Part shown: positions 6,606 through 25,164 of the stretch, piece by piece
Numbering within the stretch: position 1 is the first letter of the stretch
Layout: each line of letters starts with the position of its first letter
Assembly (NCBI GenBank): GCA_002497285.1
Contig: DANJ01000014.1
Location: 34,089-98,088 of the forward strand
From: Candidatus Pacearchaeota archaeon UBA92
GTDB lineage: Archaea; Nanobdellota; Nanobdellia; Pacearchaeales; GW2011-AR1
DNA: 64,000 bases
Direction of reading: 5' to 3'
The notes under the pieces: model-generated
Database searches by the model: none
The model's input: only the letters and a program-made list of their open reading frames with translations
Told to the model about the DNA's origin: nothing
Translations under genes and position numbers: made by a program

Positions 6606-6681
6606 AATTTATCTTAATCCTTTGATAATTTGTAAAATCACAAATCCAGAACCATTATAAATTAAATATTCTTATCATTAT

Positions 6682-9715: not shown

Positions 9716-11929
9716 CTATCTCTTTGCTCTCTTTGAACGAGATTTCAAAAGCCATAGGATGGCAAAGAAGATTATCACAAGAACTACCGCCAAAACGGAC
9801 AAGACAAATGAAGGCAGCTTTTCAGGTTCAACTGGAATGTCGAAAAATCCTTCAGAGGTTTTATCTGTCGGAATCTTTTCATTTATAGATTTTATAGTCA
9901 AAACCGCAGACAATTTAGAAGCAGCTATCTCATTCACTTCAACCTGCAAATCATAATAACCATCGACATCCATGTCAAATTTCCCAGTATTTCCAAGGAA
10001 AATTTCCTCTGTTATAGGCTCCGAAGAAACAGTCACAACCACAGAATTATTATTTATATCATCCAGCACCAATGAGTGCAGTTCATTGTTTAATAAAAAT
10101 TTCAAACTCCATTTCTTGAAGAAAGTTCTCTTGTATCCATCTTTCAAATTATCAGGAGTCAAAGAAATAATTGCAGCACTCCCTGAAGAGCCTGTAGATG
10201 CCGTAGCAGCAGAAGTCGTATAAGATATTGAAATTGTATTGCTACCTGAAGCCTGCTCCAAGCCAGTAACATTAAGATTAACAATTGAGTTTGAACACTC
10301 ATATTCTCCCGTTAAGTAGGTCTTTGAATAATTTCCACTGTGAGATGAATAAGATATTGACTGAATAGTCATGCATGAATCCGTATTGAATAAAACACTA
10401 ATATTAACTATACCTGTCAGGTTTGATGCAATATTCTTGCTCGTTGTTGAAACCGAAGAAAACCAGATAGGAGTATTATTTCTATTTGCTCCCTCAGTTA
10501 AATTGAACCAGTTTAAAACAAAAATACCTCTTCCAGGATTTAAAGTAAAATTGATATTAAGATCATTGCTAAAGAGATTACCACTCCCAATGACTGAATA
10601 ATTATCGAGGTAGAGCAAAGCATTGGTAAGATTATACACTTGGACATAGCTTTTTAATAATCCCGTGTTATTAAACAGCAATCCGGGATTATCCAAAGAA
10701 GTGTTACTCACTTTATAACTATCAGCAATCCAATCTATTCCATTTCGGCTGGAATTTTGGTTCGCTAGCCCTTTTACAATCTGGTTCCACATATAAGTCG
10801 CAAACTCCAATGCTCCCGCTTTGCTTGGATGTATTCCATCAATAGTATAAGTATTGTTCCAAGAGGTATAAGTTCCATTTGTATCATTGACAATACTTCT
10901 TAACTTAATCATTCCAATTTCAACATTGGCTATTGAAGTATTAACAGTAAGATTAACTAAGTCTGCTTCCAATGCAATTTTCTTATCTTCAGAATTGCTG
11001 GTATCATATTGAGAAACTAAAATAAAGTATAGTCTATCTGAAGAGTATCCAGCAGTATTATAGGCATCCCTATATCTTGTTATAATATTATAAATATTTC
11101 GAGAATAATTTTGTTTGCACCATTCTACATCATCTCCTCGTTCACACATAGTCCATGCATCAAAGAAGGTCAATGCAATTTTATCTTTTTTTATTAAACC
11201 TTCTTTTCCTGACCAAGGAACTAACACTCTACAAGTAGAATTATAACCCTCCGCCCAGTTTATAGTGAGATTTGTTCTTGTTAGAACATTTGTGATATAT
11301 GCCGTTGTATCAAACGAATCTCCCAAATAAGGATACCATAATTCTTTATGAATTTCTTTTCCATTAGCATATATATCAAATTGAACCTTACAAAATTCGC
11401 AATAATTATTGGTTACACTCTGTGGGACATCCAAATAACAATTATTTTCCGAATCTAAATAAACATCAGACCAAACTTTATCTGTATAAATTTGACAGCT
11501 AGTGTTAAGAAGAATATCTGTTTCTAAATTAAATCCAGAAGGCTCGTTTTGATATAGTGTGTTTTTTTGAAGTGTTGCTTTTTTTGGAGGAAGACCACAA
11601 AAAGTATAGGTAACTGCTAGGTTGTTAATATCTTTATCACCTACATTTTTGATACTAAATGGGATAATTGTTGCATTGTCTTTTACAATTGGGCTAAAAG
11701 AGGGATCAACACTCACATCGATTGTTCCAAACCAAACTGGAAAAATATTAAATTTTTGTATAATCTTGCTTTCATGTAAGAAAGCCCCTCCAAAAAACGA
11801 GATATAAAATAATAAAATGACTAATAAAATATAAATTAATGGTCTCTTTTTCAACTTAGTTTTAGTGCTTTCAATTTTCCTCTCAATTGTTTCTATATCG
11901 GCAACCATCTTATAGCTTATTAACCGCAC
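9716..11929 (-). CDS. membrane-anchored surface protein with central SGNH/GDSL-hydrolase domain, Ser/Thr-rich linker, and N- and C-terminal TM segments
   Basis: SGNH block I YPYLGDSFD (GDS nucleophile, about aa 203), block III-like VNDT, block V DGIHPSKAG (DxxH, about aa 365), spaced about 160 aa apart. Many N-x-S/T sequons. The C-terminal TM SVLAVVLVIIFFAILWLL is followed by a KSRSKRAKR tail. Confidence 0.55.
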   Translation of the reverse strand: MRLISYKMVADIETIERKIESTKTKLKKRPLIYILLVILLFYISFFGGAFLHESKIIQKFNIFPVWFGTIDVSVDPSFSPIVKDNATIIPFSIKNVGDKDINNLAVTYTFCGLPPKKATLQKNTLYQNEPSGFNLETDILLNTSCQIYTDKVWSDVYLDSENNCYLDVPQSVTNNYCEFCKVQFDIYANGKEIHKELWYPYLGDSFDTTAYITNVLTRTNLTINWAEGYNSTCRVLVPWSGKEGLIKKDKIALTFFDAWTMCERGDDVEWCKQNYSRNIYNIITRYRDAYNTAGYSSDRLYFILVSQYDTSNSEDKKIALEADLVNLTVNTSIANVEIGMIKLRSIVNDTNGTYTSWNNTYTIDGIHPSKAGALEFATYMWNQIVKGLANQNSSRNGIDWIADSYKVSNTSLDNPGLLFNNTGLLKSYVQVYNLTNALLYLDNYSVIGSGNLFSNDLNINFTLNPGRGIFVLNWFNLTEGANRNNTPIWFSSVSTTSKNIASNLTGIVNISVLFNTDSCMTIQSISYSSHSGNYSKTYLTGEYECSNSIVNLNVTGLEQASGSNTISISYTTSAATASTGSSGSAAIISLTPDNLKDGYKRTFFKKWSLKFLLNNELHSLVLDDINNNSVVVTVSSEPITEEIFLGNTGKFDMDVDGYYDLQVEVNEIAASKLSAVLTIKSINEKIPTDKTSEGFFDIPVEPEKLPSFVLSVLAVVLVIIFFAILWLLKSRSKRAKR

Positions 11930-12001: not shown

Positions 12002-13519
12002 ATGGGAACTGGCAACTCAGGAGAACGTCAAAAAATTCTAACTAAATCGAAGTATCTCAATGGGTTGCAGTGTTTAAAGTATCTATGGATTGCAGTTAAT
12101 GATCCTAAAAGAATACCTGCACCAGATGAGCAAGACGAGTTTAGATTTGATGAGGGGCATATTGTTGGGGAATATTCAAAAAAGCTTTTTCCTGATGGCA
12201 TTGATTTGCCTAGCTCACCTGCTGATTTTAGTAAGAACTTAGAAGAAACCCAGAAGTCGCTGGCTATTAGAAAGCCATTATTTGAAGCAGGATTCTTAAA
12301 AGAAAGAGTTTATTCTAGGGCAGATATTCTTGACCCAGTTAAAGGCTCTAAAGACATGTGGGATATTATAGAAGTTAAGAGTTCAACAGAAGTCAAAGAT
12401 GTTCATATTCAAGATGTAGCCTTTCAAAAGTTTTGTTACGAAAAAGCAGGATTAAAAATAAATAAATGTTTTCTTATGCATATTAATAAAGAATATGCTA
12501 AGAAGGGAAATATTAAGGTAGACCAGTTATTTGTTAAAGAAGATATAAGCGAGAAAATTGAAGAAGAGATATCTAACATTCCTGATCGATTAGGTCAAAT
12601 GTTTAAAGTAATGGATTGTAGTGAAGAACCTAAAAGTAAGATAGGGGAGTTTTGTAAAGACCCTTATGACTGTCCAATAAAAAGTGAATGTTGGGGTTTT
12701 CTTCCAGAGAATAGCGTGTTTAATCTTTATAGGGGTGGAAAGAGATCACTTGATTTATTTGAAAAAGGGATTTTGGCAATAAGAGACATTCCAGAAGATT
12801 ACGAGTTGGGAGATAAACAAAAAATCCAGCATTTTTGTGCTAAAACCGATAAACCTCATATAAACAAGGAAGCAATAAAATCTTTCATAAAGAGATTAAA
12901 ATATCCCTTATATTTCCTAGATTTTGAAACCTATCAAACGGTAATCCCCTTGTATGATGGATTGAAACCCTATCAGCAGATACCCTTTCAGTTTTCTTTA
13001 CATATAGTTGATAAAAAAGGAAATAAAAAGCATTACTCATTTGTTGCTGAAGGAAATACAGATCCACGACCTGAGTTTTTTAAACAACTAAAAAAGAAGT
13101 TAGCAAAAAAAGGGAGTATAATTGTTTACAACCAGAGTTTTGAGCAAGGAAGACTAAAAGAATTAGCAGAGCTATTCCCAAAAGAAAAGAAAACTGTAGA
13201 AGAATACATAAAAAGAATGGCTGACTTGTTAGTTCCATTTAGAAATTTCGATTATTATGATTGTAAACAACAAGGGAGTGCAAGTATAAAACATGTTCTT
13301 CCAGCATTAACAAAAGTTACATATAACGGAATGGATATCGCAAACGGCGGTCAAGCATCATTAAGGTATTTGTTTATTACTCACGGATCCAATGATGGAA
13401 AGAAAGCAACAAAAGAAGAGATAAAAAAAGTAAGAGAAGATTTAGAAAAATATTGTTGTCTTGATACTGAAGCTATGATAATGGTTATGAATAAATTAAA
13501 AGAAGTTACAAAAAAATGA
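12002..13519 (+). CDS. DUF2779-type protein: N-terminal PD-(D/E)xK (Cas4/RecB-like) nuclease fused to a DEDD/DnaQ-like 3'-5' exonuclease domain
   Basis: DILD...DIIEVKSS (D..ExK nuclease core). Cys cluster CSEE..C..PYDCPIKSEC. Then YFLDFET (Exo I), IIVYNQSFEQ (Exo II), CCLDTEAM (Exo III). Stop overlaps the start of the next gene (ATGA at 13516). Confidence 0.65.
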   Translation: MGTGNSGERQKILTKSKYLNGLQCLKYLWIAVNDPKRIPAPDEQDEFRFDEGHIVGEYSKKLFPDGIDLPSSPADFSKNLEETQKSLAIRKPLFEAGFLKERVYSRADILDPVKGSKDMWDIIEVKSSTEVKDVHIQDVAFQKFCYEKAGLKINKCFLMHINKEYAKKGNIKVDQLFVKEDISEKIEEEISNIPDRLGQMFKVMDCSEEPKSKIGEFCKDPYDCPIKSECWGFLPENSVFNLYRGGKRSLDLFEKGILAIRDIPEDYELGDKQKIQHFCAKTDKPHINKEAIKSFIKRLKYPLYFLDFETYQTVIPLYDGLKPYQQIPFQFSLHIVDKKGNKKHYSFVAEGNTDPRPEFFKQLKKKLAKKGSIIVYNQSFEQGRLKELAELFPKEKKTVEEYIKRMADLLVPFRNFDYYDCKQQGSASIKHVLPALTKVTYNGMDIANGGQASLRYLFITHGSNDGKKATKEEIKKVREDLEKYCCLDTEAMIMVMNKLKEVTKK

Positions 13520-16431
13520 AATCTCAAAAGCATTCAAAACTAATTCTGAAAGAAAAAAATACCCATTCAAATCTAACGGATTACCATGCAAAATATTATG
13601 CAAATGAATTAACAAAAAGAAATCCTTCAGATAGTATAGAAAAATTAACTACTTCGCTTGCTGATGCCCAAGTTGATTTAAATCCTCATCAAATTGATGC
13701 TGCACTTTTTGCATTCAAATCGCCTCTTTCTAAAGGAGTTATATTAGCGGATGAGGTTGGTTTAGGAAAAACAATCGAAGCAGGAATAGTATTATCTCAA
13801 AAATGGGCAGAGAGCAAAAGAAAAATATTAATTATAGTCCCTTCAAATTTAAGAAAGCAATGGAATCAAGAATTATTAGAGAAGTTTTTCTTAGAATCTC
13901 TAATTTTAGAAACAAAATCTTTTAATGAGATAAATGAGAAAATTAAAATCGGAAATCCATTTGAGCAGAACAAGATAGTTATTTGCTCTTATCATTTTGC
14001 AAGAATTAAAGAGGAATTTATCAAATCGATTAATTGGGATTTGATTATTATTGATGAAGCCCATAGATTAAGGAATGTTTATAAAAAAGGAAATAAGATT
14101 GCCAAGTCAATCAAAGAGTCAACAAAACATGCTCCAAAAATCCTACTTACTGCCACACCTTTACAAAATTCTTTATTAGAACTATATGGATTAGTGGGAT
14201 TTATTGATGATCATATCTTTGGAGATTTAGAAAGTTTTAAAGAACAATTTGTATGGGGGACTGAAGGGAATGGAGTTAATTTTGATGATTTGAAAAAAAG
14301 ATTGAGCCCAATCTGTCAGAGGACATTGAGAAAACAAGTTTTAGAATACATAAAATATACCAATAGACTCGCACTTACTCAAGATTTTATTCCAAATAAA
14401 GAGGAGCAAGAACTTTATAAAAAAGTATCAGATTACTTACAAAAAGAAGACCTTTTTGCATTACCTTCTGGTCAAAGACATTTAATGACTCTGATAATGA
14501 GAAAATTACTGGCATCTTCGACCTTTGCAATTGCGGGAACATTAAGATCTCTTACAAAAAGATTAAAAAAAGTTGTTGAAGCTGGTTCCTTTGAAGAAGT
14601 GGGTAGTTTGTTTAGGGGAGAATATGAGGGGCTAGACGAATTAAGTGAAGAATGGAATGATGAGGACGAACCAGAGAAAAAACAATTAACTCTTTCTGAA
14701 AAAGAACAACTTAAAAGAGAAATAAAAGAGCTGGAAGATTTTAGTAATCTTGCTGAATCCATAAAATCAAATGCAAAAGGAGAAGTTATGCAGACGGCAC
14801 TTGCAGAAGGTTTTTCAAAATTAAAAGAACTTAAAGCTCCAGAAAAAGCATTGATATTTACTGAATTTAGAAGAACCCAAGAATATCTTTATGAAATACT
14901 TTCAAAAACGGAGTATAAAGATAAAATAGTTCTATTTAATGGAACAAACAATGATGAGCTCTCGCAAAGGATATATCGAGAATGGTTAGATAAAAACCGA
15001 GGCACAGATAAATTTACAGGCTCTAAATCTGCTGATCTAAGATCTGCACTAGTTGAATATTTTAGAGATGAAGCTAAAATAATGATCGCTACCGAAGCTG
15101 CAGCAGAAGGCATCAATCTACAGTTCTGTTCATTAGTTGTTAATTACGATCTGCCTTGGAATCCTCAAAGAATAGAACAAAGAATAGGAAGATGTCATAG
15201 ATATGGGCAGAATCATGATGTCGTCGTTATCAACTTTTTGAATAAAAAAAATGAAGCAGACCAGAGAATTTTCCAATTACTTTCTGAGAAGTTTAAATTA
15301 TTTGATGGAGTTTTTGGTGCAAGCGATGAAGTTTTAGGAGCAATTGAATCGGGAGTAGATTTTGAAAAAAGAATAAGTCAGATTTATCAAGAATGTAGAG
15401 GTGCAGAAGAAATAAATAAATCATTTGATAATTTGCAGAAAGAATTAGAGTCACAGATTGAGGAAGGAATGAAAGTTACTCGTAAAAAGCTTTTAGAAAA
15501 TTTTGATGAGGCTGTTCACGAAAGGTTAAAAATAAGTTTAGACCAAAGCAAACAATATCTCAATAGATTTGAACAGTGGTTATGGAGTCTTACTAAATAT
15601 GGTCTTAATGACTCTGCAACATTCAATGACTCTGATTTTTCATTTGATTTGAAAAAATCTCCCTTTAGTGAAATAAACATTTCAACTGGGAGATATAAGC
15701 TAGGTAGAAAAGTTGAAGATGCCCACATTTATCGTATAGGACATCCGATCGCCCAGAGATTATTAGAGAGATTTAAATCTAAAAATCTTCAAGATAGGGA
15801 ATTAGTTTTTGACTTTTCAAACTATGGAAAGAAGATTAGTGTTTTGAATAACCTGCAGAAGAAGAAAGGAGAATTAATATTATGGAAATTAATTGTAGAC
15901 TCATTTGAAAGCGAAGACTATCTTATATTTACCGCTTTAACAGATAAAAAGGAAATTTTGGAAGAAGAGCAATGTAAGAGATTATTTAGTTTGCCTGCAA
16001 ATATGGGTGATGTTTCCAAGAGCTTAGAAATGGAATCAAATTTAAGATCTGAATTTGAAAAGAAAAAGGTTAAGCTCATATCTGAAATTGCAGGAAAAAA
16101 CAGTGTCTTCTTCGATGAGGAAATGGAGAAGTTAGATAAATGGGCGGAGGACAGGAAAAGAACATTAAAAAATAGCTTAAAAGAGCTTGATGAAAAGATA
16201 CAAATCCTAAAAAAAGATATTAGAGTAACCACTAATCTTCAAGATAAACTTAAAAAGCAGAAAGAAATTAGGAGTTTAGATAAAAAGAGGGATGAATCTT
16301 GGAAAGAATATGACCAAGAAGCCCAAAGGATAAACGTTAAAAAGGACGGATTGATTGATAATATTGAAGCGAGAATGGAGCAAAAGATAAAGGTCGAAAA
16401 GCTCTTCTCGATCAAATGGAGTGTTAAATAA
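13516..16431 (+). CDS. SNF2-family (SF2) helicase/translocase with a long C-terminal coiled-coil extension
   Basis: Motif I LADEVGLGKTIEAG, motif II IIIDEAHRLRN, motif III LLTATPLQNSLLELY, motif VI QRIGRCHRYGQ. About 350 aa Lys/Glu-rich coiled coil after the helicase core. Confidence 0.85.
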   Translation: MKSQKHSKLILKEKNTHSNLTDYHAKYYANELTKRNPSDSIEKLTTSLADAQVDLNPHQIDAALFAFKSPLSKGVILADEVGLGKTIEAGIVLSQKWAESKRKILIIVPSNLRKQWNQELLEKFFLESLILETKSFNEINEKIKIGNPFEQNKIVICSYHFARIKEEFIKSINWDLIIIDEAHRLRNVYKKGNKIAKSIKESTKHAPKILLTATPLQNSLLELYGLVGFIDDHIFGDLESFKEQFVWGTEGNGVNFDDLKKRLSPICQRTLRKQVLEYIKYTNRLALTQDFIPNKEEQELYKKVSDYLQKEDLFALPSGQRHLMTLIMRKLLASSTFAIAGTLRSLTKRLKKVVEAGSFEEVGSLFRGEYEGLDELSEEWNDEDEPEKKQLTLSEKEQLKREIKELEDFSNLAESIKSNAKGEVMQTALAEGFSKLKELKAPEKALIFTEFRRTQEYLYEILSKTEYKDKIVLFNGTNNDELSQRIYREWLDKNRGTDKFTGSKSADLRSALVEYFRDEAKIMIATEAAAEGINLQFCSLVVNYDLPWNPQRIEQRIGRCHRYGQNHDVVVINFLNKKNEADQRIFQLLSEKFKLFDGVFGASDEVLGAIESGVDFEKRISQIYQECRGAEEINKSFDNLQKELESQIEEGMKVTRKKLLENFDEAVHERLKISLDQSKQYLNRFEQWLWSLTKYGLNDSATFNDSDFSFDLKKSPFSEINISTGRYKLGRKVEDAHIYRIGHPIAQRLLERFKSKNLQDRELVFDFSNYGKKISVLNNLQKKKGELILWKLIVDSFESEDYLIFTALTDKKEILEEEQCKRLFSLPANMGDVSKSLEMESNLRSEFEKKKVKLISEIAGKNSVFFDEEMEKLDKWAEDRKRTLKNSLKELDEKIQILKKDIRVTTNLQDKLKKQKEIRSLDKKRDESWKEYDQEAQRINVKKDGLIDNIEARMEQKIKVEKLFSIKWSVK

Positions 16432-16433
16432 AA

Positions 16434-18377
16434 ATGGCAAAGAAGGAAACTAAAATTGAAAGAGTTGATTTGAAATCTAGGGATATTGTTGCTAATCAGA
16501 AAGAAAAGCTTAGACAATTGTTCCCAGAAATATTCTCTGAAGATAAAGTTAATTTTGAAAAACTAAAAAAGACATTAGGTGAAAATGTTGATGAATCTCA
16601 GGAAAGATATGAAATGACTTGGGCAGGAAAGACTAACTGTTTTAAAATTATACAAGAATCTTCATTAGGAACATTAAAACCTATTGAAAAGGAGTCGATT
16701 AATTGGGGCGAAACACAGAATTTGTTTATTGAAGGAGATAATTTAGAAGTTCTTAAACTTCTTCAAAAATCCTATAATGAAAAGATAAAAATGATTTACA
16801 TTGATCCTCCTTATAATACGGGTCATGATTTTGTGTATAAAGATAAATTCGGACAACAATTAGATGATTATCTAAAACTAACTGGACAAGTAGATGAAGA
16901 GGGTAAAGCCTTATCTACAAATACTGATGCAGATGGAAGGTATCATAGTAATTGGATGAATATGATGTATCCGAGATTATTTCTTGCAAGAAATCTTTTA
17001 AAAGAAGAAGGCGTGATTTTCATTTCTATTGATGATAATGAGGTAGATAATTTAAAGAAGGTTTGTAACGAAATATTTGGAGAGGAAAATCTTGTTGCTC
17101 AATTAGTTTGGAAGAAGAAAGCGGGAGGAGGAAACGATACTAAATATTTTGCTATTGATCATGAGTATATTTTATGTTATGCAAAGAATATAATCTCTAT
17201 GGGAAGATTATGGATAGGATTAACTGAAGAACAAAGAAGTAAATATGTTCTAAAAGATGAATTTTTTGATGAAAGAGGACCATACCAATTAAAAAATCTT
17301 TATCAAGGATCTATTGCAGAAGATCGTCCCAACTTAAAGTATCCAATAACTTGCCCTGATGGTTCTAAACTGCATAAGAAAAAGGATGGGGGACTTTATA
17401 GATGGAGATGGGAAGAGTCTCGGTTTTTGGAAGGTGTAAAAGATAGTAAAATAGAATTTAAAAAAATAAATGGAGAATGGCAGGTTTTTACTAAGCAATA
17501 TCTTTATGATGGAGAAGATGGAGATGAAAGAATGACTAAACCTAGATCAATTTTATTGAAGGAAGGAATGACTCGAGATGGTAAAGAAGAATTAAAATCT
17601 TTGTTTGATAAACCTCCTTTTGATTTTCCAAAACCTACAAAATTGATAAAGCATCTCATGAGTATAATGACTAATTCAGATTCAGATGAAATAATCTTAG
17701 ACTTTTTTGCTGGTTCTGGAACAACTGCTCATGCAGTTTTAGAGTTAAATAAGGAGGAGAACGGGAGGAGAAAGTTTATTCTTGTTCAATTACCCGAGCC
17801 AACCAACGAGGACTCAGAAGCCTTCAAGACAGGATATAAACATATAGCCCATATCTCTCAAGAAAGAATAAAGAGAGTAATTAAGAGAATTAAAGAAGAA
17901 CAAAAAGAAGCTGGAAAGCAAAAGAAAATTGGAGAAGAAAATAAAACAAATAACCTCGATTTAGGATTTAAGGTATTCCAATTAGATAAATCCAACTTTA
18001 AGATTTGGGATGCACAAACAAGAGATATTCAGACTGCCTTGAATGAACATATAAATCCGATAAGAAAAGAAAGTTCGCAAGAAGATGTCCTTTATGAACT
18101 GATACTAAAATCAGGATTATCTTTAACAACAGATATTAAAGAGATAAAAGTTGGCAATAAAAAATTGTTTTCTATTGAGGATGGAATGCTCCTAATTTGT
18201 TTAGAGAAAGAGCTAACTTCTGAATTAATAAAGAAAATTGCAGAAATGAAACCTGCGAGATTTTACTGTTTAGATGATGGATTTAAAGGAAATGATCAAC
18301 TAAAAGCCAACGCTGTTGAAATCTTTAAGAATGTTGAAACTGTTGATGGAGAAAAAATTGTCTTCAGAACAGTTTAA
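16434..18377 (+). CDS. mod: type III restriction-modification Mod subunit (N6-adenine DNA methyltransferase, beta class)
   Basis: IYIDPPYNTGHDF (motif IV DPPY) precedes FFAGSGTTAHAV (motif I, AdoMet binding). Size 647 aa. Immediately followed by Res. Confidence 0.85.
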   Translation: MAKKETKIERVDLKSRDIVANQKEKLRQLFPEIFSEDKVNFEKLKKTLGENVDESQERYEMTWAGKTNCFKIIQESSLGTLKPIEKESINWGETQNLFIEGDNLEVLKLLQKSYNEKIKMIYIDPPYNTGHDFVYKDKFGQQLDDYLKLTGQVDEEGKALSTNTDADGRYHSNWMNMMYPRLFLARNLLKEEGVIFISIDDNEVDNLKKVCNEIFGEENLVAQLVWKKKAGGGNDTKYFAIDHEYILCYAKNIISMGRLWIGLTEEQRSKYVLKDEFFDERGPYQLKNLYQGSIAEDRPNLKYPITCPDGSKLHKKKDGGLYRWRWEESRFLEGVKDSKIEFKKINGEWQVFTKQYLYDGEDGDERMTKPRSILLKEGMTRDGKEELKSLFDKPPFDFPKPTKLIKHLMSIMTNSDSDEIILDFFAGSGTTAHAVLELNKEENGRRKFILVQLPEPTNEDSEAFKTGYKHIAHISQERIKRVIKRIKEEQKEAGKQKKIGEENKTNNLDLGFKVFQLDKSNFKIWDAQTRDIQTALNEHINPIRKESSQEDVLYELILKSGLSLTTDIKEIKVGNKKLFSIEDGMLLICLEKELTSELIKKIAEMKPARFYCLDDGFKGNDQLKANAVEIFKNVETVDGEKIVFRTV

Positions 18378-18388
18378 GGAGAAAAAAT

Positions 18389-21313
18389 ATGGCTCTTAAA
18401 CTAAAATTCGACAGCGATTTACGACACCAAAATGATGCAATTAGTTCTATAGTTGATTTATTTGATGGTCAGCCATTAAATCAAGGAGATTTTGAAGTCT
18501 ATATGGCAAAGAAGAAGGGTGAGCTCCATAGTCATTTGGGATTGGGAAATAAAATTCTATTAGATGAAAAAGATATTTTAGAAAATTTGAAAAAGATACA
18601 AGAAAAAAATGAACTTCCACTTTCGGATAATTTAGATGGGCTTAATTTTTCTATTGAAATGGAAACAGGAACTGGAAAAACTTATGTTTATTTAAGAACG
18701 ATATTTGAATTAAACAAAAAATATGGTTTCAAGAAGTTTATTGTTGTAGTTCCAAGTGTTGCGATTAGGGAGGGAGTTAAGAAAAATATTGAAATTACAG
18801 AAGAACACTTCAAAAAGTTATATAATAATGTTCCATTCAAATGTCAGGTCTATGATTCTAAAAAAATAAATCAAGTTGGGGAGTTTGCAAGAAGTAATAA
18901 CATTCAGGTTCTAATTATCAATATTGATGCATTTAGGAAGACATTAGAAGATAAAGATGAACTCTCAAAGGCAAATGTTATTCATAGAGAACAAGATAAA
19001 CTCGGTGGTAGAAAACCAATTGAGTTCATTCAAGCAACAAAACCGATCGTAATTATAGATGAACCTCAAAGCGTAGACAATACAGATCTAGCTAAAAAAG
19101 CAATTTCTTTATTAAACCCTTCCTGCATATTAAGGTATTCTGCTACGCATAGAGAACAATATAATTTAGTTTACAAATTAGATCCTATAAAAGCGTATGA
19201 TTTGAAATTAGTTAAAAAAATAGAGGTGGCTTCTTTAACCGAAGACTTATCTGCAAATGAACCATACATCAAGTTAGAAAAAATGGATAATTCAAAGGGT
19301 CTCAGAACAAAAATATCTATTCTACAAAAAGGCTCTTCGGGAACAAATAAGAAAAGCTTGTTTGCAAAACAAGGCGAAGATTTGTATGATCTCTCTGGTG
19401 AGTTGGAAATTTACAGAGGATATATTATATCTGACATAGATGCTACCCCTAAAAATGAATTATTGACTTTCAGCAATGGCAAGTTTTTAACATTGGGTCA
19501 AGAAATGGGTGGAATAAAAGAAGAATTGATAAAACAACAAATTAAAGAGACTATTAAAGAACATCTTAAAAAAGAAGCTAAATTTAAGAAACTCGGTATA
19601 AAGGTTCTTTCTCTATTCTTTATTGATAGAGTTAATAATTATAGATATTATGATGAAAAGAATAAGGCACAAAAAGGAAAATATGCTCAATGGTTTGAAG
19701 AGTCATTTAAAGAGTTATTAAAAGAATCTTACTTTAAGTTTATTATAGATCAAGTTTATCCAGGATTTTCAGAAGAGTCCATTGAAAGGCTACATAACGG
19801 ATATTTTGCACAAGATAAAAGTGGAAATTGGAAAGATACAAATGGACAAACTCAAGCTGATGACGATATCTATGGGCTTATTATGAGAAACAAAGAGCAA
19901 TTATTGTCTATGGACGAACCATTGAGATTTATATTTAGCCACTCTGCTTTAAGAGAGGGTTGGGATAATCCTAATGTTTTTCAAATATGCACATTAAATG
20001 AGACTAAATCTACTATGAAAAAAAGACAAGAAATTGGACGAGGGTTAAGACTCCCCGTAAATCAAAAAGGAGAAAGAATTTATGATGATGAAATCAACAG
20101 ATTAACTGTCTTTGCTAATGAAAGCTATGAAGATTTTGTTAAGAAGTTACAAGAAGATTTTGAAGAAGACGGTATGAAATTTGGTATTGTTGACGAGATT
20201 ATATTTAGAAAAGTAAGGGAACTTATTGCTGGAGAGAAATTTATTCCTTCGGAAAAAGCCAAAGAGATTTTTATCGAATTAAAAGATAAAGGATACATAA
20301 ACAAAGATGGAAAGATTGAAGAGAAATTTGCCCCTGAAAAAGAAGGATTCAAATTGGAGCTTAAAGAGTCATTAGTCAAATATTCTCCGCAGATAACTGA
20401 TTTATTGAAGAAACAATTATTAACTAGTAGAGTTAAGAGAAAAAGAGATAGACAACCTGTAAAACTAAAGAAAGAAGTTATAGCTAGTCCAGAATTTAAA
20501 GCTCTTTGGCAAAAAATAAATAAGAAAACATTCTATTCAGTAGAATTTTCTACTAAAAAGCTTATAGACAATTGTTCAATCCTAATAAGACAAATTGATA
20601 AAATAAGACCATTGAAAATTGATTTTAAGAAAGCTGAAGTTGAATTAGAAAAGGAAGGACTAGACACAACCCTTTTAAGAACTCAAGAAATTGAAGTTAT
20701 GAAAGAGAACTCTCTTCCAGATATCTTATCTTATCTACAGAGAGAAACACATTTAACTAGAGACACGATAGCAGAAATTCTAATAAAATCAAATAGGATT
20801 GAAGAGTTTAAAATAAATCCTCAAAGATTCATGGATGCTATAATTGAAGTTGTCAAAAAAGAATTATTGAGCTTATTGCTATCGGGAATAAAATATGAAA
20901 GAATAGGCAATGAAGTTTATGAGATTCAAATATTTCAAGAAAAAGAAATTGAAGAATATTTAGATAAAATGATAGAAGTCAATAATAGCGTTTATGATTA
21001 TGTTGTTTATGATTCCGAAGTAGAGAAGAAGTTTGCTAAAGAACTTGACAAAAGAGAAGATGTAGAATTATTCATGAAACTTCCTCCAAAGTTCATTGTA
21101 AATACACCATTAGGATCTTATAATCCAGATTGGGCTGTTGTAAAAAAGGATGAAAAGGGAGCTAAAAAATTATATCTTGTAAGAGAAACAAAAGGTTCGC
21201 TTTCTGAAGAAGACCTTAGAGGTAGAGAAGCATATAAGATAGAATGTGGAAGAAGACATTTTAAGGCAATTGACGTTGACTTTGATGTTGTGACTAGTGC
21301 CAGCGAGGTTTAA
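18389..21313 (+). CDS. res: type III restriction enzyme Res subunit (SF2 helicase plus C-terminal PD-(D/E)xK endonuclease)
   Basis: Walker A EMETGTGKTYVY, DEAD-like IIDEPQ, helicase motif VI region QEIGRGLRL, C-terminal nuclease motif YNPDWAVV...LYLVRETKG. GGAG SD-like sequence 8 nt upstream. Confidence 0.85.
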   Translation: MALKLKFDSDLRHQNDAISSIVDLFDGQPLNQGDFEVYMAKKKGELHSHLGLGNKILLDEKDILENLKKIQEKNELPLSDNLDGLNFSIEMETGTGKTYVYLRTIFELNKKYGFKKFIVVVPSVAIREGVKKNIEITEEHFKKLYNNVPFKCQVYDSKKINQVGEFARSNNIQVLIINIDAFRKTLEDKDELSKANVIHREQDKLGGRKPIEFIQATKPIVIIDEPQSVDNTDLAKKAISLLNPSCILRYSATHREQYNLVYKLDPIKAYDLKLVKKIEVASLTEDLSANEPYIKLEKMDNSKGLRTKISILQKGSSGTNKKSLFAKQGEDLYDLSGELEIYRGYIISDIDATPKNELLTFSNGKFLTLGQEMGGIKEELIKQQIKETIKEHLKKEAKFKKLGIKVLSLFFIDRVNNYRYYDEKNKAQKGKYAQWFEESFKELLKESYFKFIIDQVYPGFSEESIERLHNGYFAQDKSGNWKDTNGQTQADDDIYGLIMRNKEQLLSMDEPLRFIFSHSALREGWDNPNVFQICTLNETKSTMKKRQEIGRGLRLPVNQKGERIYDDEINRLTVFANESYEDFVKKLQEDFEEDGMKFGIVDEIIFRKVRELIAGEKFIPSEKAKEIFIELKDKGYINKDGKIEEKFAPEKEGFKLELKESLVKYSPQITDLLKKQLLTSRVKRKRDRQPVKLKKEVIASPEFKALWQKINKKTFYSVEFSTKKLIDNCSILIRQIDKIRPLKIDFKKAEVELEKEGLDTTLLRTQEIEVMKENSLPDILSYLQRETHLTRDTIAEILIKSNRIEEFKINPQRFMDAIIEVVKKELLSLLLSGIKYERIGNEVYEIQIFQEKEIEEYLDKMIEVNNSVYDYVVYDSEVEKKFAKELDKREDVELFMKLPPKFIVNTPLGSYNPDWAVVKKDEKGAKKLYLVRETKGSLSEEDLRGREAYKIECGRRHFKAIDVDFDVVTSASEV

Positions 21314-22009
21314 ATGACACTAGCCCTAACTTTTCCAATAAGGGATGCATGGGTAGTTATTGCAGATAAAAAGATGATTAGTAAGGAGGATAATATTAAA
21401 GATAGCGATCTAATGTGCATAAAGTTTTTTACAGATAATAGACAAAAAATAGAAAAGATAGCTCATGGATTAATCTTTGTTGGTGCTGGAAATAAGGACA
21501 TATTAGATAAGACTATTGAGAGAATAAATCTTTCAAAAGACTTTGACGAGTTTTTGAAGTATTTAAAAGAAAAAATAGGTGAAGTATACTCTCATTTTGG
21601 TGATACTATAAATGAAGAGGAATTTTTGATTATTGAACAGAACAAACAAAGAGCTTTTAAGTTCAAGATTAAAGAAATAAAAAGAAGCGAGGGTAAAAAA
21701 GGCTGTTATCCTTTGATAGCCCAGAATCTTGAGAATAATTTCATTGGTTGTTATGAAAATTGCATAAATCTCGGGAATGTTAAATTAGAGATAAACCAAT
21801 TAAGAACTAATATTTCTACAAGTGCGGGCAAGAAATTTTATCAAGAGTGTAATAGAATTCTTTCGCTTCTCGCAATAGATAATCTATATTCAGTGGGACA
21901 TCCAGCAATACATGGATCAGACATCTGGTTAGTTTCAAATAATAAGATTAAAAAAGTTTACTCTTCGCCAGCAAATACATATCTATGGGAGGTTAAAGAA
22001 GATGATTAA
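21314..22009 (+). CDS. hypothetical protein of the defense operon; N-terminus resembles an Ntn-hydrolase (HslV/proteasome beta-like) fold
   Basis: MTLALTFPIRDAWVVIADKKMISKEDNIKDSD..IKFF..IAHGLIFVGAGNKDILD. Thr directly after Met1, Asp about 17 residues after it, Lys about 33-36, G-x-G-D further on. This copies the T1/D17/K33 spacing of HslV ([20 protein letters not shown]...KVRRL...IAGFAGGTAD). GAGG SD upstream. Start abuts the res stop. Confidence 0.3.
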   Translation: MTLALTFPIRDAWVVIADKKMISKEDNIKDSDLMCIKFFTDNRQKIEKIAHGLIFVGAGNKDILDKTIERINLSKDFDEFLKYLKEKIGEVYSHFGDTINEEEFLIIEQNKQRAFKFKIKEIKRSEGKKGCYPLIAQNLENNFIGCYENCINLGNVKLEINQLRTNISTSAGKKFYQECNRILSLLAIDNLYSVGHPAIHGSDIWLVSNNKIKKVYSSPANTYLWEVKEDD

Positions 22010-24185
22010 GGAATTTGAGGATATTCGATATAAATTTGAAGAACAAAAAGTAAGGTATACTTCTATTTCCAATAAATTTTCATTTGAAGATAAGAAAAAA
22101 ATAATAGAAACTATCTTGGAAGAGGATATCTGGGCATATTTTCAATTAGCAGTTGAAATATTATTTGAGTTTTGTTCTGATACTAAGGAATACATTAATC
22201 TGTTAGAAAGAACCTATAATAAAATAAAAAATGATATGGCATCTGCACCTTTCTTTGAGATGTTGATTAGAATCGGTAAGGAGAAGCCATCTATAGGTCT
22301 TGCAATTTATAAAGAAATAAATCAAAATAGCAATAGCGATGAGCTCAAAACAATAAGCGGTTTAATACTTGGGGGATATTCAATAAAAGAGAATAATCTT
22401 TTAAACAAGTTAATAGGAGAAAGAAAAATAGAATACCCTCTTACAAATCTGACTCTTAAGGCAATTCTGGTAAAATATGAAAATGAAAACGCTATTCCTG
22501 AAGAGGTAAAATCATTTATTGAATATGTCTCTAACTCTGAAGAGGAAAAACATTTGAGAGAACTTATGAATCTTTGTATTTTTTTATACAAATTAGATAA
22601 TAACTATTTTTATGATATAATTAAAAAGATAATGGAAAAGAAAAATAGTAGAGTAAATGAGATGATTTTTATTAGATGCAAAAGGCTAAACTTCTCAAGT
22701 AAACAGTTTATAGAATTAGCTGAGCTTACAAAAGATTGTGATGAACACGCTTTAAATGAACTGATGCATTCTTTTATTGATTATCCAGAGGAAGTTGAGA
22801 ATATATCAGAATTATTTATTTATTGGGTAAACAAGAACTTGGAGTTTAAAATTATAAATTTTGATTGGACATTAAAAGAATTGGCTAAAAAGAATAAGAA
22901 ATTCATAGAATACTTCATAGATAATTATAGCAAAATCCAGACTGAAAAGTTATCTTATTTTCATTTATTCCCAAGAATGTTTGAGAGATTAGCTTCTGAG
23001 GATATCTCTTTCGCCATAAAAATATTAATTATCAAGAAAGTATGGGAAAAGGACTTAAGACTATTCTTTGAATTGGTATCTAAAATTATAGGCGATATTT
23101 ATAAGTTGAGTGATAAAAACAAGGCATTTGATTTGTTCTTACCTCTTGCCAATGTAATTGAAAGCATCTCGGAGGGTTCAGATTTTGTAAATTATGACAA
23201 GGATAATTTTAATAAGATTATTCAAACAAAAAACTTTGATGAGTTAATCAATTATGTCAACTATTTGTTGGATGCTTTAAGGTTTCGTAAGAATAAATAT
23301 AACTTTGAAGAAATAGATAAGTCATTAGAAGAATTTAAAGAACTAAACTATGTTGTAAAAACTACTCTGGATAAAATAAAAAAAGAAAAGAGATACTCTC
23401 CATTATTCTGGCTAGGCGAACAAGAAAGAGATAAGGAGTTAAAGAAAGCATACCTAGAAGAATTAAACCAATATTTGAATTTAACCTCGGATATAGTGAA
23501 TGAAGAATGTTCTGAGAACAATAGGTCTTTGATTAATAATCTAAGTGATGAAAGTGGCTTTTTTGATGTCTTTAGTGAGGTGCTATTCATAAATAAATTT
23601 GTTGTTTTAAAGAGCAAGTATAGTTTAGTTATTGAACCAAAAATACCTAATAAGAGAGGTTATTCAGATTTATTAGTTCAGAATAAGCAAAGAAAGTTTT
23701 TCTTTGAGGTTAAAAATTCAAAAACAGATCGAAATTTAAGTTTAGATAACGGGGCAGTCTTAATAAAAAATAGGGTGGACAAGATAATTAAAGAAAAATC
23801 CAAGCAGTTCTTTGATGAAAAAACATTTAAGGAGATGGAAGATGGAAAAAGGACAGATCTCTACTTTATAGTAATTGATGCAGATAATTCAACTATCGAT
23901 GAATACATGATTGCCAATAGCTTTTTTGGAAGTTTAGCTTATCAGTTTTATAGAAATAATAAAACTGGGGAGACTACAGAACCCCAGTTAGTAAGGAATG
24001 ATGATGCAATAGCTAAGGATAAGAAAATTGTTAGCGGATTAATATATTTCAAAAAACAGTTAATCAATAAAGATGGAAAAATAAAATTTATTTTGGTAGG
24101 GGATATTATTGTAAATCCTTATGCAGTTAATCAACCAACAAAAGAAGAGGTTGAAGAGTTAAAGAAAATATTATTTAGTGCGTAA
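22002..24185 (+). CDS. large hypothetical protein (727 aa): N-terminal all-alpha repeat region plus C-terminal restriction-endonuclease-like (PD-(D/E)xK) motif
   Basis: C-terminal segment LVIEPKIPNKRGYSDLLVQNKQRKFFFEVKNSK (D-x11-E-x-K) then DLYFIVIDAD. GGAGG SD upstream. Start overlaps the previous stop (22002 vs 22009). Confidence 0.45.
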   Translation: MIKEFEDIRYKFEEQKVRYTSISNKFSFEDKKKIIETILEEDIWAYFQLAVEILFEFCSDTKEYINLLERTYNKIKNDMASAPFFEMLIRIGKEKPSIGLAIYKEINQNSNSDELKTISGLILGGYSIKENNLLNKLIGERKIEYPLTNLTLKAILVKYENENAIPEEVKSFIEYVSNSEEEKHLRELMNLCIFLYKLDNNYFYDIIKKIMEKKNSRVNEMIFIRCKRLNFSSKQFIELAELTKDCDEHALNELMHSFIDYPEEVENISELFIYWVNKNLEFKIINFDWTLKELAKKNKKFIEYFIDNYSKIQTEKLSYFHLFPRMFERLASEDISFAIKILIIKKVWEKDLRLFFELVSKIIGDIYKLSDKNKAFDLFLPLANVIESISEGSDFVNYDKDNFNKIIQTKNFDELINYVNYLLDALRFRKNKYNFEEIDKSLEEFKELNYVVKTTLDKIKKEKRYSPLFWLGEQERDKELKKAYLEELNQYLNLTSDIVNEECSENNRSLINNLSDESGFFDVFSEVLFINKFVVLKSKYSLVIEPKIPNKRGYSDLLVQNKQRKFFFEVKNSKTDRNLSLDNGAVLIKNRVDKIIKEKSKQFFDEKTFKEMEDGKRTDLYFIVIDADNSTIDEYMIANSFFGSLAYQFYRNNKTGETTEPQLVRNDDAIAKDKKIVSGLIYFKKQLINKDGKIKFILVGDIIVNPYAVNQPTKEEVEELKKILFSA

Positions 24186-24240: not shown

Positions 24241-24705
24241 TTATTTTACATGGGGGGATTTTGGTCTGCCGAGCTTTTTGCCTTCCTGCCTTGCCCTTTC
24301 TAAGCCAGCCATAGTCCTTTCCCTGATAATATCCCTCTCAAATTGGGCAAATGACGAGAGAATGTTTATCATTAGCTTATTTGTTGGGTTATCATCTAAG
24401 ACTATATTCTCCTTTAGAGTTTTGAATTGAACATTATTTTGTTTAAGAAGTTCTAAGTCATTAATGAGTTCCTGCATGCTCCTTGCCCATCTGTCAAGTT
24501 TCCAAACTAAAATTAAATCCCATTTCTTTCTTAATGCATCTTGAAAAATATCGTTTTTTACAGGGCGAGTCTTTCTTGTTGACTCCTGTTCTTCAAATAT
24601 TTTATAATCATAGCCCATAGCTTTTGCATACTTTTCCAACTCTATCTTTTGATTCTCAGGATTCTGATCTATCTTTGAAGTTCTACAATATATCGCTACT
24701 TTCAT
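24241..24705 (-). mobile_element. serine recombinase (resolvase/invertase catalytic domain), C-terminal HTH missing and probably truncated
   Basis: MKVAIYCRTSKIDQNPENQ carries the catalytic Ser in the YxRxS context. Also ...DRWARS, LGRPK. 154 aa ending right after the GRPK linker, where the HTH would normally follow. Confidence 0.7.
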
Positions 24706-25164
24706 GTTTTCTTACCTTAGTTGGCTCTCTATGAATTTCACAAGGGCATTCAAAAGGATCAATCTTATATTTTTGTTTTAATTCTGTAACATACAACACT
24801 TCTCTTTCCCCTGCTCCGCCATTAACATGTCTATTCCAATAAAGATTGTTTACTAAAGAAATAATTGAGTTCTCTTGGGTTATCGATGCTATTTCATTTA
24901 ATTCTGTGCCCGCAAACCTGCCAAAAATATATTCATGGAAACCTTGTGCGACTTTTTTATTTAAACTTGTTAAAGATGAACATGCTCCTCCATCACCTTG
25001 ATAATTTCTATTCTTATCCCATGTTTTTTGCAGGCTTCTTCTATTGCAACTCTGCAAAAAACTTTCAGTTTTTCGCTTCTCATCATGCGATATCTGTACT
25101 TTGGTGTTATCTGAACATACTTCCTGTTTGCTCCGACAGAGCTCCCGCTATGTTTGTATTCCAT
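24683..25164 (-). pseudogene. tnpA: IS200/IS605-family Y1 transposase (tnpA) remnant split by a frameshift
   Basis: N-part ORF 24970..25164: KYVQITPKYRYRMMRSEKL...KVMEEHVHL (HuH motif). C-part in another frame, 24683..25057: ...EYIFGRFAGTELNE...LYWNRHVNGGAGEREVLYVTELKQ matches the tnpA C-terminus (Y-containing helix, GG...Y.E). The two frames overlap around 24970-25057. Confidence 0.6.

Follow-up and report, generated by a model that had tools for sequence, protein, structure and literature searches.

Organization of the locus and its host operon

The window analysed here, a stretch of 64,000 nucleotides from the DPANN archaeon Candidatus Pacearchaeota archaeon UBA92, contains a block of co-oriented genes (12002-24185, + strand) in which the mod and res genes of a Type III restriction-modification (R-M) system are joined at their 3' end to a two-gene cassette, formed by a 231-aa partner gene and the 727-aa target gene. 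The features of the locus are as follows:

12002-13519 (+): DUF2779/RecB-Cas4-like protein (PF11074, E 2e-45)
13516-16431 (+): DrmD-like SNF2 helicase (SNF2-rel_dom, E 5e-38; NCBIfam DISARM_DrmD_b, 743 bits for a cutoff of 950)
16434-18377 (+): mod gene of the host Type III R-M system (PADLOC MTase_III, E 6e-211; Pfam N6_N4_Mtase)
18389-21313 (+): res gene of the host Type III R-M system (PADLOC REase_III, 1022 bits; Pfam ResIII, RE_endonuc)
21314-22009 (+): partner gene, 231 aa, predicted divergent proteasome-beta/Anbu/HslV-like Ntn (threonine) peptidase (AF2, Foldseek)
22002-22009 (+): 8-nt overlap of the two cassette genes, ATGATTAA, read from the sequence
22002-24185 (+): target gene, 727 aa, ORF with an ATG start
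22002-23483 (+): predicted HEAT/ARM-like alpha-solenoid of the target, residues 1-494, about 30 helices (DSSP of the AF2 model)
23514-24185 (+): putative PD-(D/E)xK-like domain of the target, residues 505-727 (AF2 element order, profile, weak PF08011 match)
24241-24705 (-): serine recombinase remnant, 154 aa, catalytic domain only, convergent (PF00239, E 4e-36)

Several elements of an earlier annotation of this DNA (hereafter the original prediction) were recovered at this locus, namely the 727-aa ORF itself, its R-M setting, which Pfam and PADLOC ascribed to the Type III mod/res genes upstream, its position as the last gene of the operon, where it closes the + strand block, and the 55 nt that separate its stop codon from the truncated, convergent recombinase. 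This serine recombinase remnant marks the edge of the island, beyond which lie housekeeping translation genes (HIT, aIF5B, S6e, aIF2-gamma).

The genes of the cassette are tightly packed against the R-M system and against each other. The start codon of the partner (21314) directly follows the stop codon of res (21313), and the start codon of the target falls within the last codons of the partner, with a GGAGG motif at 21988-21992, 10 nt 5' of this start. As far as can be read from the sequence, the overlap and the GGAGG motif together are a signature of translational coupling, and an overlapping arrangement of the two genes was likewise observed in four other loci (L001, L004, L006 and L009).

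A conserved protein with a predicted N-terminal solenoid

The 727-aa gene is a real, conserved and uncharacterised gene. Its ORF is not a product of chance because it has 37 homologs, almost all full length, that share 36-100% identity with it, and because a profile search with the C-terminal domain reached 192 cluster representatives. The whole protein and its halves gave no above-threshold match in Pfam, NCBIfam, PADLOC or PHROGs, and no match was obtained from the PDB, queried with the sequence alone and with three profiles, nor from phage records by tblastn. In addition, a homolog search with a divergent alignment did not reach annotated relatives.

The AF2 model of the protein (pLDDT 90.9, pTM 0.74) predicts a large all-helical N-terminal region, which the original prediction had described as some 500 residues of low-complexity alpha-helical repeats. 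The all-helical character is confirmed by AF2 and DSSP, whereas low complexity and sequence repeats are not: none of 489 twelve-residue windows had an entropy of 2.2 bits or less, and BLAST self-comparison detected no internal sequence repeats in the solenoid. Many residues of this N-terminal part are invariant. Searching the PDB with the whole model (Foldseek) retrieved IntS4, importins and exportins (E 8.5e-4 to 2e-2, TM 0.15-0.27), the matches in both PDB and BFVD being dominated by the N-terminal solenoid. Based on this model, the solenoid is presumed to act as a protein-binding scaffold or sensor.

One relative, P0037, carries a 240-aa N-terminal extension with an RNNVAH motif. A HEPN domain was considered for this extension and rejected, as Pfam gave no match, and comparison of the extension with the 273-aa neighbour gene in locus L006 revealed no similarity.

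Fold and active-site residues of the C-terminal domain

The ~220 C-terminal residues are modelled as a separate alpha/beta domain, composed of a core (517-642), a beta-rich subdomain (645-704) and a C-terminal helix. The elements assigned by DSSP on the AF2 model run H517-534, E541-544, E557-561, E564-572, H591-603, E620-626 and H634-642, with a core pLDDT above 85 except in the loop 576-587. This layout, a1(E526)-b1-b2(D556)-b3(E569,K571)-a2-b4, corresponds to the core order of the PD-(D/E)xK fold. The residues of its putative active site were surveyed in 104 full-length relatives, with counts given out of 103, or out of the 99 aligned at E526:

23577-23579 (+): E526, helix a1, putative metal ligand (E in 97/99 aligned full-length relatives)
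23667-23669 (+): D556, N-terminal end of strand b2, putative 'PD' aspartate (102/103 full-length relatives)
23706-23714 (+): E569-V570-K571, strand b3 (E569 is E in 101/103 full-length relatives and D in 2)
23769-23774 (+): N590-R591, start of helix a2 (N in 90/103 and K/R in 92/103 full-length relatives)

Altogether, E526, D556 and E569 are retained in at least 97% of the full-length relatives, and in an alignment of 42 relatives sharing 19-31% identity no column other than D556 and E569 is invariant. Since the three acids remain near-invariant down to about 20% identity, a metal site is favoured over a degenerate fold.

The motifs on which the original prediction had based a PD-(D/E)xK arrangement are present in the protein, as G553-YSD556-LLV, F566-FFE569-V-K571-NSK and D619-LYFIVID626-AD, although the spacer between the first two counts 6 residues instead of the 10 announced. 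The element order and the conservation of D556 and E569 agree with this arrangement, but the lysine does not hold across the family: K571 is a lysine in 24/103 full-length and 4/71 short relatives, is therefore missing in about 77% of the full-length ones, and is elsewhere usually replaced by I, T, Y, V or F. On the evidence of these alignments, the lysine of the D...ExK signature belongs to the window protein and proteins closely related to it rather than to the family as a whole. The conserved polar/basic pair N590-R591 could replace the function of the missing lysine.

Nor did a significant match to a nuclease profile accompany this arrangement. Scans of the 17- and 42-member domain sets against Pfam, NCBIfam, PADLOC and PHROGs returned a sub-threshold PDDEXK_9 match alone (PF08011, E 0.0017, 18.7 bits for a gathering score of 25.5), restricted to the window member (1/17 and 1/42 set members), and PDB profile searches with the domain sets gave no match. 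Remote homology to nuclease families was likewise not significant: comparing a 58-sequence core alignment by hhalign with nuclease alignments built from the loci of the present analysis yielded probabilities of 0.06% for the HsdR N-terminus, 0.3% for the DUF2779 N-terminus and 2.1% for the Type III Res C-terminus. Against the Pyrococcus furiosus Holliday junction resolvase Hjc (1gef_A, query E 2e-77) the probability was 0.1%, the D and ExK stretches nonetheless falling in register. A nuclease fold of the C-terminal domain is best described as likely, not proven, on the basis of the model.

A predicted proteasome-like partner

The AF2 model of the partner (pLDDT 84, pTM 0.83) matched 855 PDB structures by Foldseek at E<=1e-3, the top 50 being all Anbu or 20S beta subunits, with 5nyg_B as the best match (E 1.4e-7, TM 0.58). 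All of 14 partner homologs keep M1-T2, D18, K45, G57 and G59, and T2 and D18 are invariant also in a partner set at 19-47% identity. T2 thereby takes the place of the N-terminal threonine nucleophile and D18 that of the Asp17-type residue of these peptidases. K45 would be the equivalent of Lys33, an insertion of ~12 residues, modelled with low confidence, separating it from D18. Sequence profiles were less informative: PF00227 was matched below threshold only, in 4/14 partner homologs (best E 0.0054) and not in the window partner, and PDB sequence profiles gave no match. Judging from the modelled fold, the partner is probably a proteasome-beta/Anbu-like N-terminal-threonine peptidase with an Ntn alpha-beta-beta-alpha sandwich. 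This gene (21314-22009) had been overlooked in the original prediction.

Distribution and mobility of the gene pair

Across the DPANN loci, the partner lies immediately 5' of the target homolog in 14 of 15 cases, L010 being the locus where it is absent. In 12/14 informative loci the cassette lies within an R-M operon or at its end, and these operons belong to three types. Ten loci (L001, L004, L006, L007, L008, L009, L010, L017, L018 and L023) have Type I or Type I-like hosts, the window and L019 have Type III hosts, and L012 has an MmeI-like Type IIG system, while L011 and L016 have no adjacent R-M genes. With two Type III loci among these, a constant association with mod/res does not hold. 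Integrases or recombinases adjoin the cassette in the window, L011, L016 and L021.

The closest relative of the 727-aa protein (88% aa identity) is encoded in a Type I operon. Blastn aligned the window with L023 over one block only, 21314-24176 (84.5% identity), which comprises exactly the two genes, within unrelated flanks: a Type III res gene and the recombinase in the window, and a Type I HsdR...HsdS/HsdM operon in L023. A DNA block that respects the boundaries of the two genes and sits in a Type I operon therefore identifies a portable cassette rather than an extension of the Type III system. The target had originally been viewed as a second effector appended to the Type III core; it is instead the second gene of a cassette found in Type I, III and IIG operons.

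The distribution is patchy: 185,579 species genomes yielded 7 loci, every one of them DPANN. Homologs on haloarchaeal plasmids are solo genes without the peptidase, including the full-length solo homolog WP_129452634.1 on a megaplasmid of the cultured Halorubrum ezzemoulense Fb21. The peptidase is consequently not obligatory for the family, as these haloarchaeal genes and L010 do without it. A short-form relative, P0081, was found on a 2.4-kb contig beside a membrane-protein gene, a context that is uninformative.

A candidate accessory defence module and its alternatives

A mobile gene pair that resides inside the R-M operons of tiny DPANN archaea is therefore a candidate accessory immune module. 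The reading that we prefer, and to which we give about even chances, is that of a portable, R-M-embedded accessory defence module associating a peptidase with a solenoid sensor-nuclease effector, through a mechanism that we infer as follows. Plugged into DPANN R-M operons, the cassette would be co-expressed with them, and both proteins would form a complex in which the solenoid serves as a protein-binding platform, holding the peptidase and/or recognising a protein cue. Candidate cues include an anti-restriction factor made by a virus and a restriction enzyme that has stalled or been disabled. The most likely role of the E526/D556/E569 triad is to bind a divalent metal and cut nucleic acid. 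The nuclease domain would be the effector, which the peptidase may gate or complement. With such a complex, a nuclease effector and a gating peptidase, the cassette would thus provide a second-line defence in support of its host R-M system, of whatever type, like other R-M-embedded defences. The sensor-plus-nuclease architecture of the original prediction survives here in its two halves, the protein-binding type of solenoid and the nuclease-like domain order, but not as the property of a lone gene. More tentatively, and with considerable doubt on our side, the pair may constitute a kind of archaeal immunity not described before: a proteasome-family threonine peptidase and a solenoid-nuclease would together form a portable plug-in guarding R-M systems of any type, for instance by firing when a virus disables the restriction enzyme.

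The same genes could be organised around the protease instead of the nuclease. The solenoid would then cap the proteasome-like peptidase or act as its adaptor, the C-terminal domain would be a DNA-binding, catalytically altered nuclease fold recognising restriction complexes on DNA, and the peptidase would degrade either the R subunit (restriction alleviation) or viral anti-restriction proteins. Possible analogues of such roles are ClpXP, which ensures restriction alleviation for EcoKI in Escherichia coli, and the HEAT-repeat protein Blm10/PA200, which caps the 20S core. The complete Thr/Asp/Lys set and proteasome fold of the partner, the HEAT/ARM-like solenoid, the absence of the ExK lysine in most members and the attachment of the cassette to ATP-dependent restriction enzymes of different types are all consistent with a regulator of the host enzyme. 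We nevertheless consider it unlikely, given the near-invariance, down to about 20% identity, of three acids at canonical catalytic positions, the existence of family members without the peptidase and the MmeI-type host of L012, which has no separate R subunit. A selfish addiction cassette of the toxin-antitoxin kind, in which a nuclease toxin would be checked or matured by the peptidase and the pair would hitch-hike in and stabilise R-M islands, in the absence of any invader sensing, appears distinctly unlikely. The sharp boundaries of the mobile two-gene block, the tight coupling of both genes and the integrases or recombinases near four of the loci (window, L011, L016 and L021) would suit such an element, but its insertions recur inside R-M operons of three types (12/14 loci) rather than at random island positions, 727 residues with a large conserved solenoid are atypical for a toxin, and solo homologs persist without the presumed antitoxin.

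The view closest to the original prediction, that of a single-gene sensor-nuclease with a classical D...ExK site, acting as a second effector for this Type III R-M/SNF2 operon alone, draws on the D...ExK string of the window protein, on the weak PDDEXK_9 match and on the terminal position of the gene in the operon. At the sequence level it is already contradicted on two points, its Type III specificity and its lysine: the nearest relative, at 88% aa identity, belongs to a Type I operon whose DNA is homologous to that of the window over the two genes only, and K571 is not conserved. Considering also that the DPANN homologs are paired with the peptidase gene (14/15 loci), we regard it as very improbable. 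Slighter still is the probability that these are housekeeping genes for DNA repair or proteostasis whose proximity to R-M systems is coincidental. The two loci without adjacent R-M genes would be expected under such a coincidence, to which are opposed the R-M operons at 12/14 informative loci, the patchy occurrence in DPANN alone (7 loci among the 185,579 species genomes) and the island-like mobility of the cassette.

Few defence systems beyond R-M have been recognised in DPANN archaea (PMC12988326). As an accessory defence module, the cassette would add a candidate DPANN system built from two families unrecognised by the libraries searched, bringing into prokaryotic immunity a proteasome-family peptidase together with a nuclease family whose active-site signature is atypical. 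If the pair does guard R-M systems, this would be the first immune role for a proteasome homolog in prokaryotes. Its sharp borders and its occurrence with three R-M types offer a clean test case for the coupling between accessory modules and restriction enzymes. A possible experimental entry point is the megaplasmid homolog of Halorubrum ezzemoulense.

Comparison with known systems

At the level of protein architecture, the solenoid shares with HEAT/ARM adaptors (IntS4, importin-beta family) an all-alpha superhelical repeat organisation of about 500 residues. This structural similarity is only generic (TM 0.15-0.27), and the target lacks sequence repeats. Like members of the PD-(D/E)xK superfamily (Hjc, PF08011), the C-terminal domain is predicted to follow the order a-b-b-b-a-b, with a Glu on a1, an Asp at the start of b2 and a Glu on b3, and the 13 residues from D556 to E569 equal the D-to-E spacing of P. 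furiosus Hjc (D33...E46-x-K48). It departs from these families by its signature lysine, mostly replaced by a hydrophobic residue or Thr (family consensus E-[IV]-x-[TS/N]-P), and by two features of its own, the N-[KR] pair conserved where a2 begins and the extra beta-rich subdomain. With Anbu, HslV and 20S beta subunits, the partner has in common the predicted fold (TM 0.58) and invariant Asp and Lys residues at the expected places, as well as, with HslV and Anbu, a Thr directly after the initiator Met. In contrast, its sequence similarity to them is below the Pfam threshold, an insertion separates D18 and K45, and it is teamed with a solenoid-nuclease in R-M operons, not with HslU or Anbu operon genes.

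Regarding whole systems, the operon around the cassette resembles DISARM through its DrmD-like SNF2 helicase only (NF038318, 743 bits, below the cutoff of 950), and its proteins gave no match to DrmA, DrmB (DUF1998) or DrmC in PADLOC. ARMADA was also checked and is a different system. Literature searches on proteins resembling the proteasome, Anbu or HslV in defence or R-M settings, and on DUF2779/DrmD/Type III combinations, turned up no account of the pair.

What lies within a Type I R-M, BREX or DISARM locus often proves to be a defence system, an argument termed guilt by embedding (Payne et al. 2024, bioRxiv 10.1101/2024.01.29.577857). The cassette can be compared with such genes, for instance PrrC in the Type I system EcoprrI. 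No PADLOC v2.0.0, Pfam or NCBIfam model matches either cassette protein above threshold. The proteins of PrrC and of the cassette are unrelated, the latter having no ABC-ATPase or anticodon-nuclease domain, and the resemblance would be a functional analogy only. The cassette is alike in its position, between or after hsdR/S/M or after res, and, as for embedded defences, it is co-oriented with its hosts and moves as a unit between them. It differs in consisting of two genes, one of them for a predicted proteasome-family peptidase, carried by DPANN archaea within three types of R-M hosts.

The two-gene cassette and its operon

The open reading frame at window 22002-24185 (+) begins with ATG and encodes 727 aa, in agreement with the original prediction. 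It also proved, as had been proposed, to be the final gene of its operon.

Genes of the operon and its downstream edge (window coordinates, strand, product)
12002-13519, +, DUF2779/RecB-Cas4-like protein
13516-16431, +, DrmD-like SNF2 helicase (NCBIfam DISARM_DrmD_b 743 bits against a cutoff of 950; PADLOC DrmD E 1e-222)
16434-18377, +, Type III Mod
18389-21313, +, Type III Res
21314-22009, +, unannotated 231-aa protein (the partner)
22002-24185, +, 727-aa protein (the target), ATG start, last gene of the co-oriented block
24241-24705, -, serine-recombinase ORF of 154 aa, catalytic domain only, convergent with the target

The partner start codon lies one base past the res stop codon, partner and target overlap by 8 nt (ATGATTAA), and a GGAGG motif occurs 10 nt upstream of the target ATG. 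The target stop codon is 55 nt from the truncated recombinase, beyond which housekeeping genes follow (HIT, aIF5B, S6e, aIF2-gamma). A 124-aa ORF without matches overlaps the 5' end of the recombinase remnant (region 24241-25057, -), and no tRNA gene marking an integration site was found in window 5000-30000. On the other side, a 737-aa ORF (9716-11929, -), divergent from the operon, had no match in Pfam, PADLOC or NCBIfam. The SNF2 helicase is translationally coupled to the Type III mod/res pair and no DrmA, DrmB or DrmC lies alongside it, a Type III R-M + SNF2 combination that differs from both DISARM and ARMADA.

Association with R-M systems and mobility

In 14 of 15 DPANN loci, the partner lies immediately upstream of the target homolog, overlapping or abutting it, and 12/14 informative loci have the pair inside an R-M operon or at its end. 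The hosts are Type I or Type I-like (L001, L004, L006, L007, L008, L009, L010, L017, L018, L023), Type III (the window, and L019 with a confirmed N6_N4_Mtase Mod and a confirmed ResIII helicase) or an MmeI-like Type IIG system (L012); loci L011 and L016 carry no adjacent R-M genes and have integrases nearby. With these pairings and hosts, the target is neither a lone second effector nor specific to the window R-M system. In L010 the partner is absent and the target homolog (P0037, 998 aa) bears a 240-aa N-terminal extension (6226-6960), which contains RNNVAH, a HEPN-reminiscent Rx4H string, had no Pfam match and does not resemble the 273-aa gene that occupies the corresponding position in L006.

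The closest relative (88% aa identity to the target) resides in the Type I operon of L023. Nucleotide comparison (blastn) of the window with this locus returned a single block (21314-24176, 84.5% identity) coincident with the two cassette genes, the flanks being unrelated; partner and target thus form a discrete mobile cassette rather than an elaboration of the window Type III system. Divergence within the block is uneven: between window 21314-22150 and L023 9321-10150, aa identity is ~64% for the peptidase and 64% for the first 50 target residues, well below the 78-96% per 50-residue bin over the rest of the target. This stretch may be under diversifying selection or recombinant.

Solo full-length target homologs, without the peptidase, occur on haloarchaeal plasmids (hhalign 97%, E 5e-11, 617 columns): WP_129452634.1 on the Halorubrum ezzemoulense Fb21 megaplasmid (L021 7399-9477), where its neighbours are a recombinase, an IS6 transposase and a BREX-5 system, and another on a Halomontanus rarus plasmid (L022 7393-9486), beside type IV secretion genes.

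Several neighbouring genes recur. A ~500-aa DUF2779 gene (RecB/Cas4-like + RNase-H-like) accompanies the R-M/cassette loci on four independent contigs (window 12002-13519; L009 4960-6471, -; L012 10948-12456, -; L017 2876-4366), upstream within the operon in the window and L017 and divergent elsewhere, which suggests that it is linked to these R-M islands in its own right. The DPANN Type I R-M operons are crowded with embedded genes (DUF3800, DUF4145, SLFN/AlbA_2 + HATPase_c_4 + HTH, NYN, KilA-N) and many small ORFs without matches besides the cassette (L001 4785-18044; L007 3480-17849; L008 1875-13082; L009 6561-16417; L023 5396-16157). A few kb upstream of its Type I operon, L023 (1-3517) encodes a family-B DNA polymerase and a solo Cas1, a pairing resembling that of casposons.

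A proteasome-like partner

The AF2 model of the partner (pLDDT 84, pTM 0.83) gave 855 PDB matches at E<=1e-3 (best 5nyg_B, E 1.4e-7, TM 0.58), with only Anbu and 20S proteasome beta subunits in the top 50. Met1-Thr2, D18, K45 and G57/G59 are invariant across 14 partner homologs, T2 and D18 being kept in homologs as low as 19% identity. Ntn threonine peptidases use a Thr1/Asp17/Lys33 arrangement, matched here by T2/D18/K45, and HslV and Anbu, in which Thr directly follows Met as in the partner, expose it once Met is removed. Since PF00227 matched only 4/14 family members, below threshold, and sequence profiles retrieved no PDB entry, the partner is predicted from its model to be a very divergent proteasome-family member.

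Target family and structure

We recovered 37 target homologs at 36-100% identity, nearly all of 715-760 aa and named only 'hypothetical protein', from Pacearchaeota, archaeon GW2011_AR13 and one Patescibacteria-labelled MAG; the protein of Candidatus Pacearchaeota archaeon CG1_02_32_132 is 100% identical to that of the window. Scanning 185,579 species genomes yielded 7 target loci, each from a DPANN archaeon (Nano-, Woese- or Pacearchaeota), and no phage record encoded the protein. At full length, the target matched no model in Pfam, NCBIfam, PADLOC or PHROGs and no PDB sequence. A C-terminal-domain profile retrieved 192 cluster representatives from 1.84 billion proteins, most of ~700-760 aa with target-like architecture. 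Some are short forms of ~300-330 aa (P0081, P0093, P0094, P0096, P0106 and others) placing this domain after an unrelated ~100-aa N-terminus; the single context recovered (L020 763-1695) comes from a higher-GC genome and has a polytopic membrane protein encoded upstream.

The AlphaFold2 model of the target (pLDDT 90.9, pTM 0.74; alignment of 30 sequences) comprises ~30 helices over residues 1-494 and an alpha/beta region over 505-727. Helical repeats of low complexity had been proposed for the N-terminal 500 aa, but this region is not of low complexity: none of 489 twelve-residue windows had entropy <=2.2 bits and BLAST found no internal repeats. Foldseek matched HEAT/ARM solenoids in the PDB (Integrator IntS4, importins, exportins) with modest scores (best E 8.5e-4, TM 0.15-0.27), whole-model searches being dominated by the solenoid and not by the C-terminal domain.

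In the latter, the modelled elements (H517-534, E541-544, E557-561, E564-572, a disordered loop at 576-587, H591-603, E620-626, H634-642, then a beta-rich subdomain and a terminal helix) match the alpha-beta-beta-beta-alpha-beta order of restriction-endonuclease-like nucleases. E526 falls in helix one, D556 where strand two begins and E569-x-K571 in strand three, the canonical positions of this superfamily. The GYSDLLV, FFFEVK and DLYFIVIDAD motifs of the original prediction are present, with a different spacer: 6 residues, not 10, separate the first two, placing D556 and E569 13 residues apart.

Of the D/E/K residues expected to be conserved, the acids held and the lysine did not. Across the 104 full-length members, conservation reaches 97/99 for E526, 102/103 for D556 and 101/103 for E569, whereas K571 survives in just 24/103, with I, T, Y, V or F elsewhere; in the C-terminal alignment of 42 distant relatives (19-31% identity), no columns other than D556 and E569 are invariant. 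The third-strand consensus reads E-[IV]-x-[TS/N]-P, and the conserved basic feature is an N-[KR] pair opening the next helix (N590 90/103, K/R591 92/103). No significant sequence-level link to known nucleases emerged: PDDEXK_9 matched one member only, under its gathering score (E 0.0017), and hhalign gave 0.06-2.1% against the nuclease domains of related loci and P. furiosus Hjc. Element order and conserved acids nevertheless make a metal-dependent nuclease-fold domain likely, if not of the classical D...ExK type; that it is catalytically active is putative, and somewhat less probable.

Discussion

Two unrecognised protein families thus make up a mobile two-gene cassette, one of them a predicted proteasome homolog in an immune-type context; PADLOC-DB v2.0.0 matched neither, and a full-text literature search found no description of such a peptidase + solenoid-nuclease pair. 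PrrC is the classical example of R-M-embedded defence. Of the readings considered, an accessory defence module carried inside R-M operons has the best support. The argument from position follows Payne et al. 2024 (bioRxiv 10.1101/2024.01.29.577857), who showed that a gene lying within an Hma, BREX, DISARM or Type I R-M locus is often a defence system. Under such a scheme, peptidase and solenoid-nuclease would be co-translated and probably form a complex, the solenoid would bind protein partners or cues, and the C-terminal domain would cut nucleic acid; the peptidase might act as a gate on the nuclease, break down viral anti-restriction proteins or regulate the R subunit.

The pair could instead be a protease-centred regulator acting in restriction alleviation, its nuclease fold degenerate, a degeneracy that the near-invariance of the three acidic residues argues against. 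It could also be an addiction cassette, or its association with R-M systems could be due to chance; against chance stands its repeated insertion into three R-M types. As an accessory defence module, the cassette would belong with two known kinds of system, namely R-M-embedded accessory modules and PD-(D/E)xK-type effectors.
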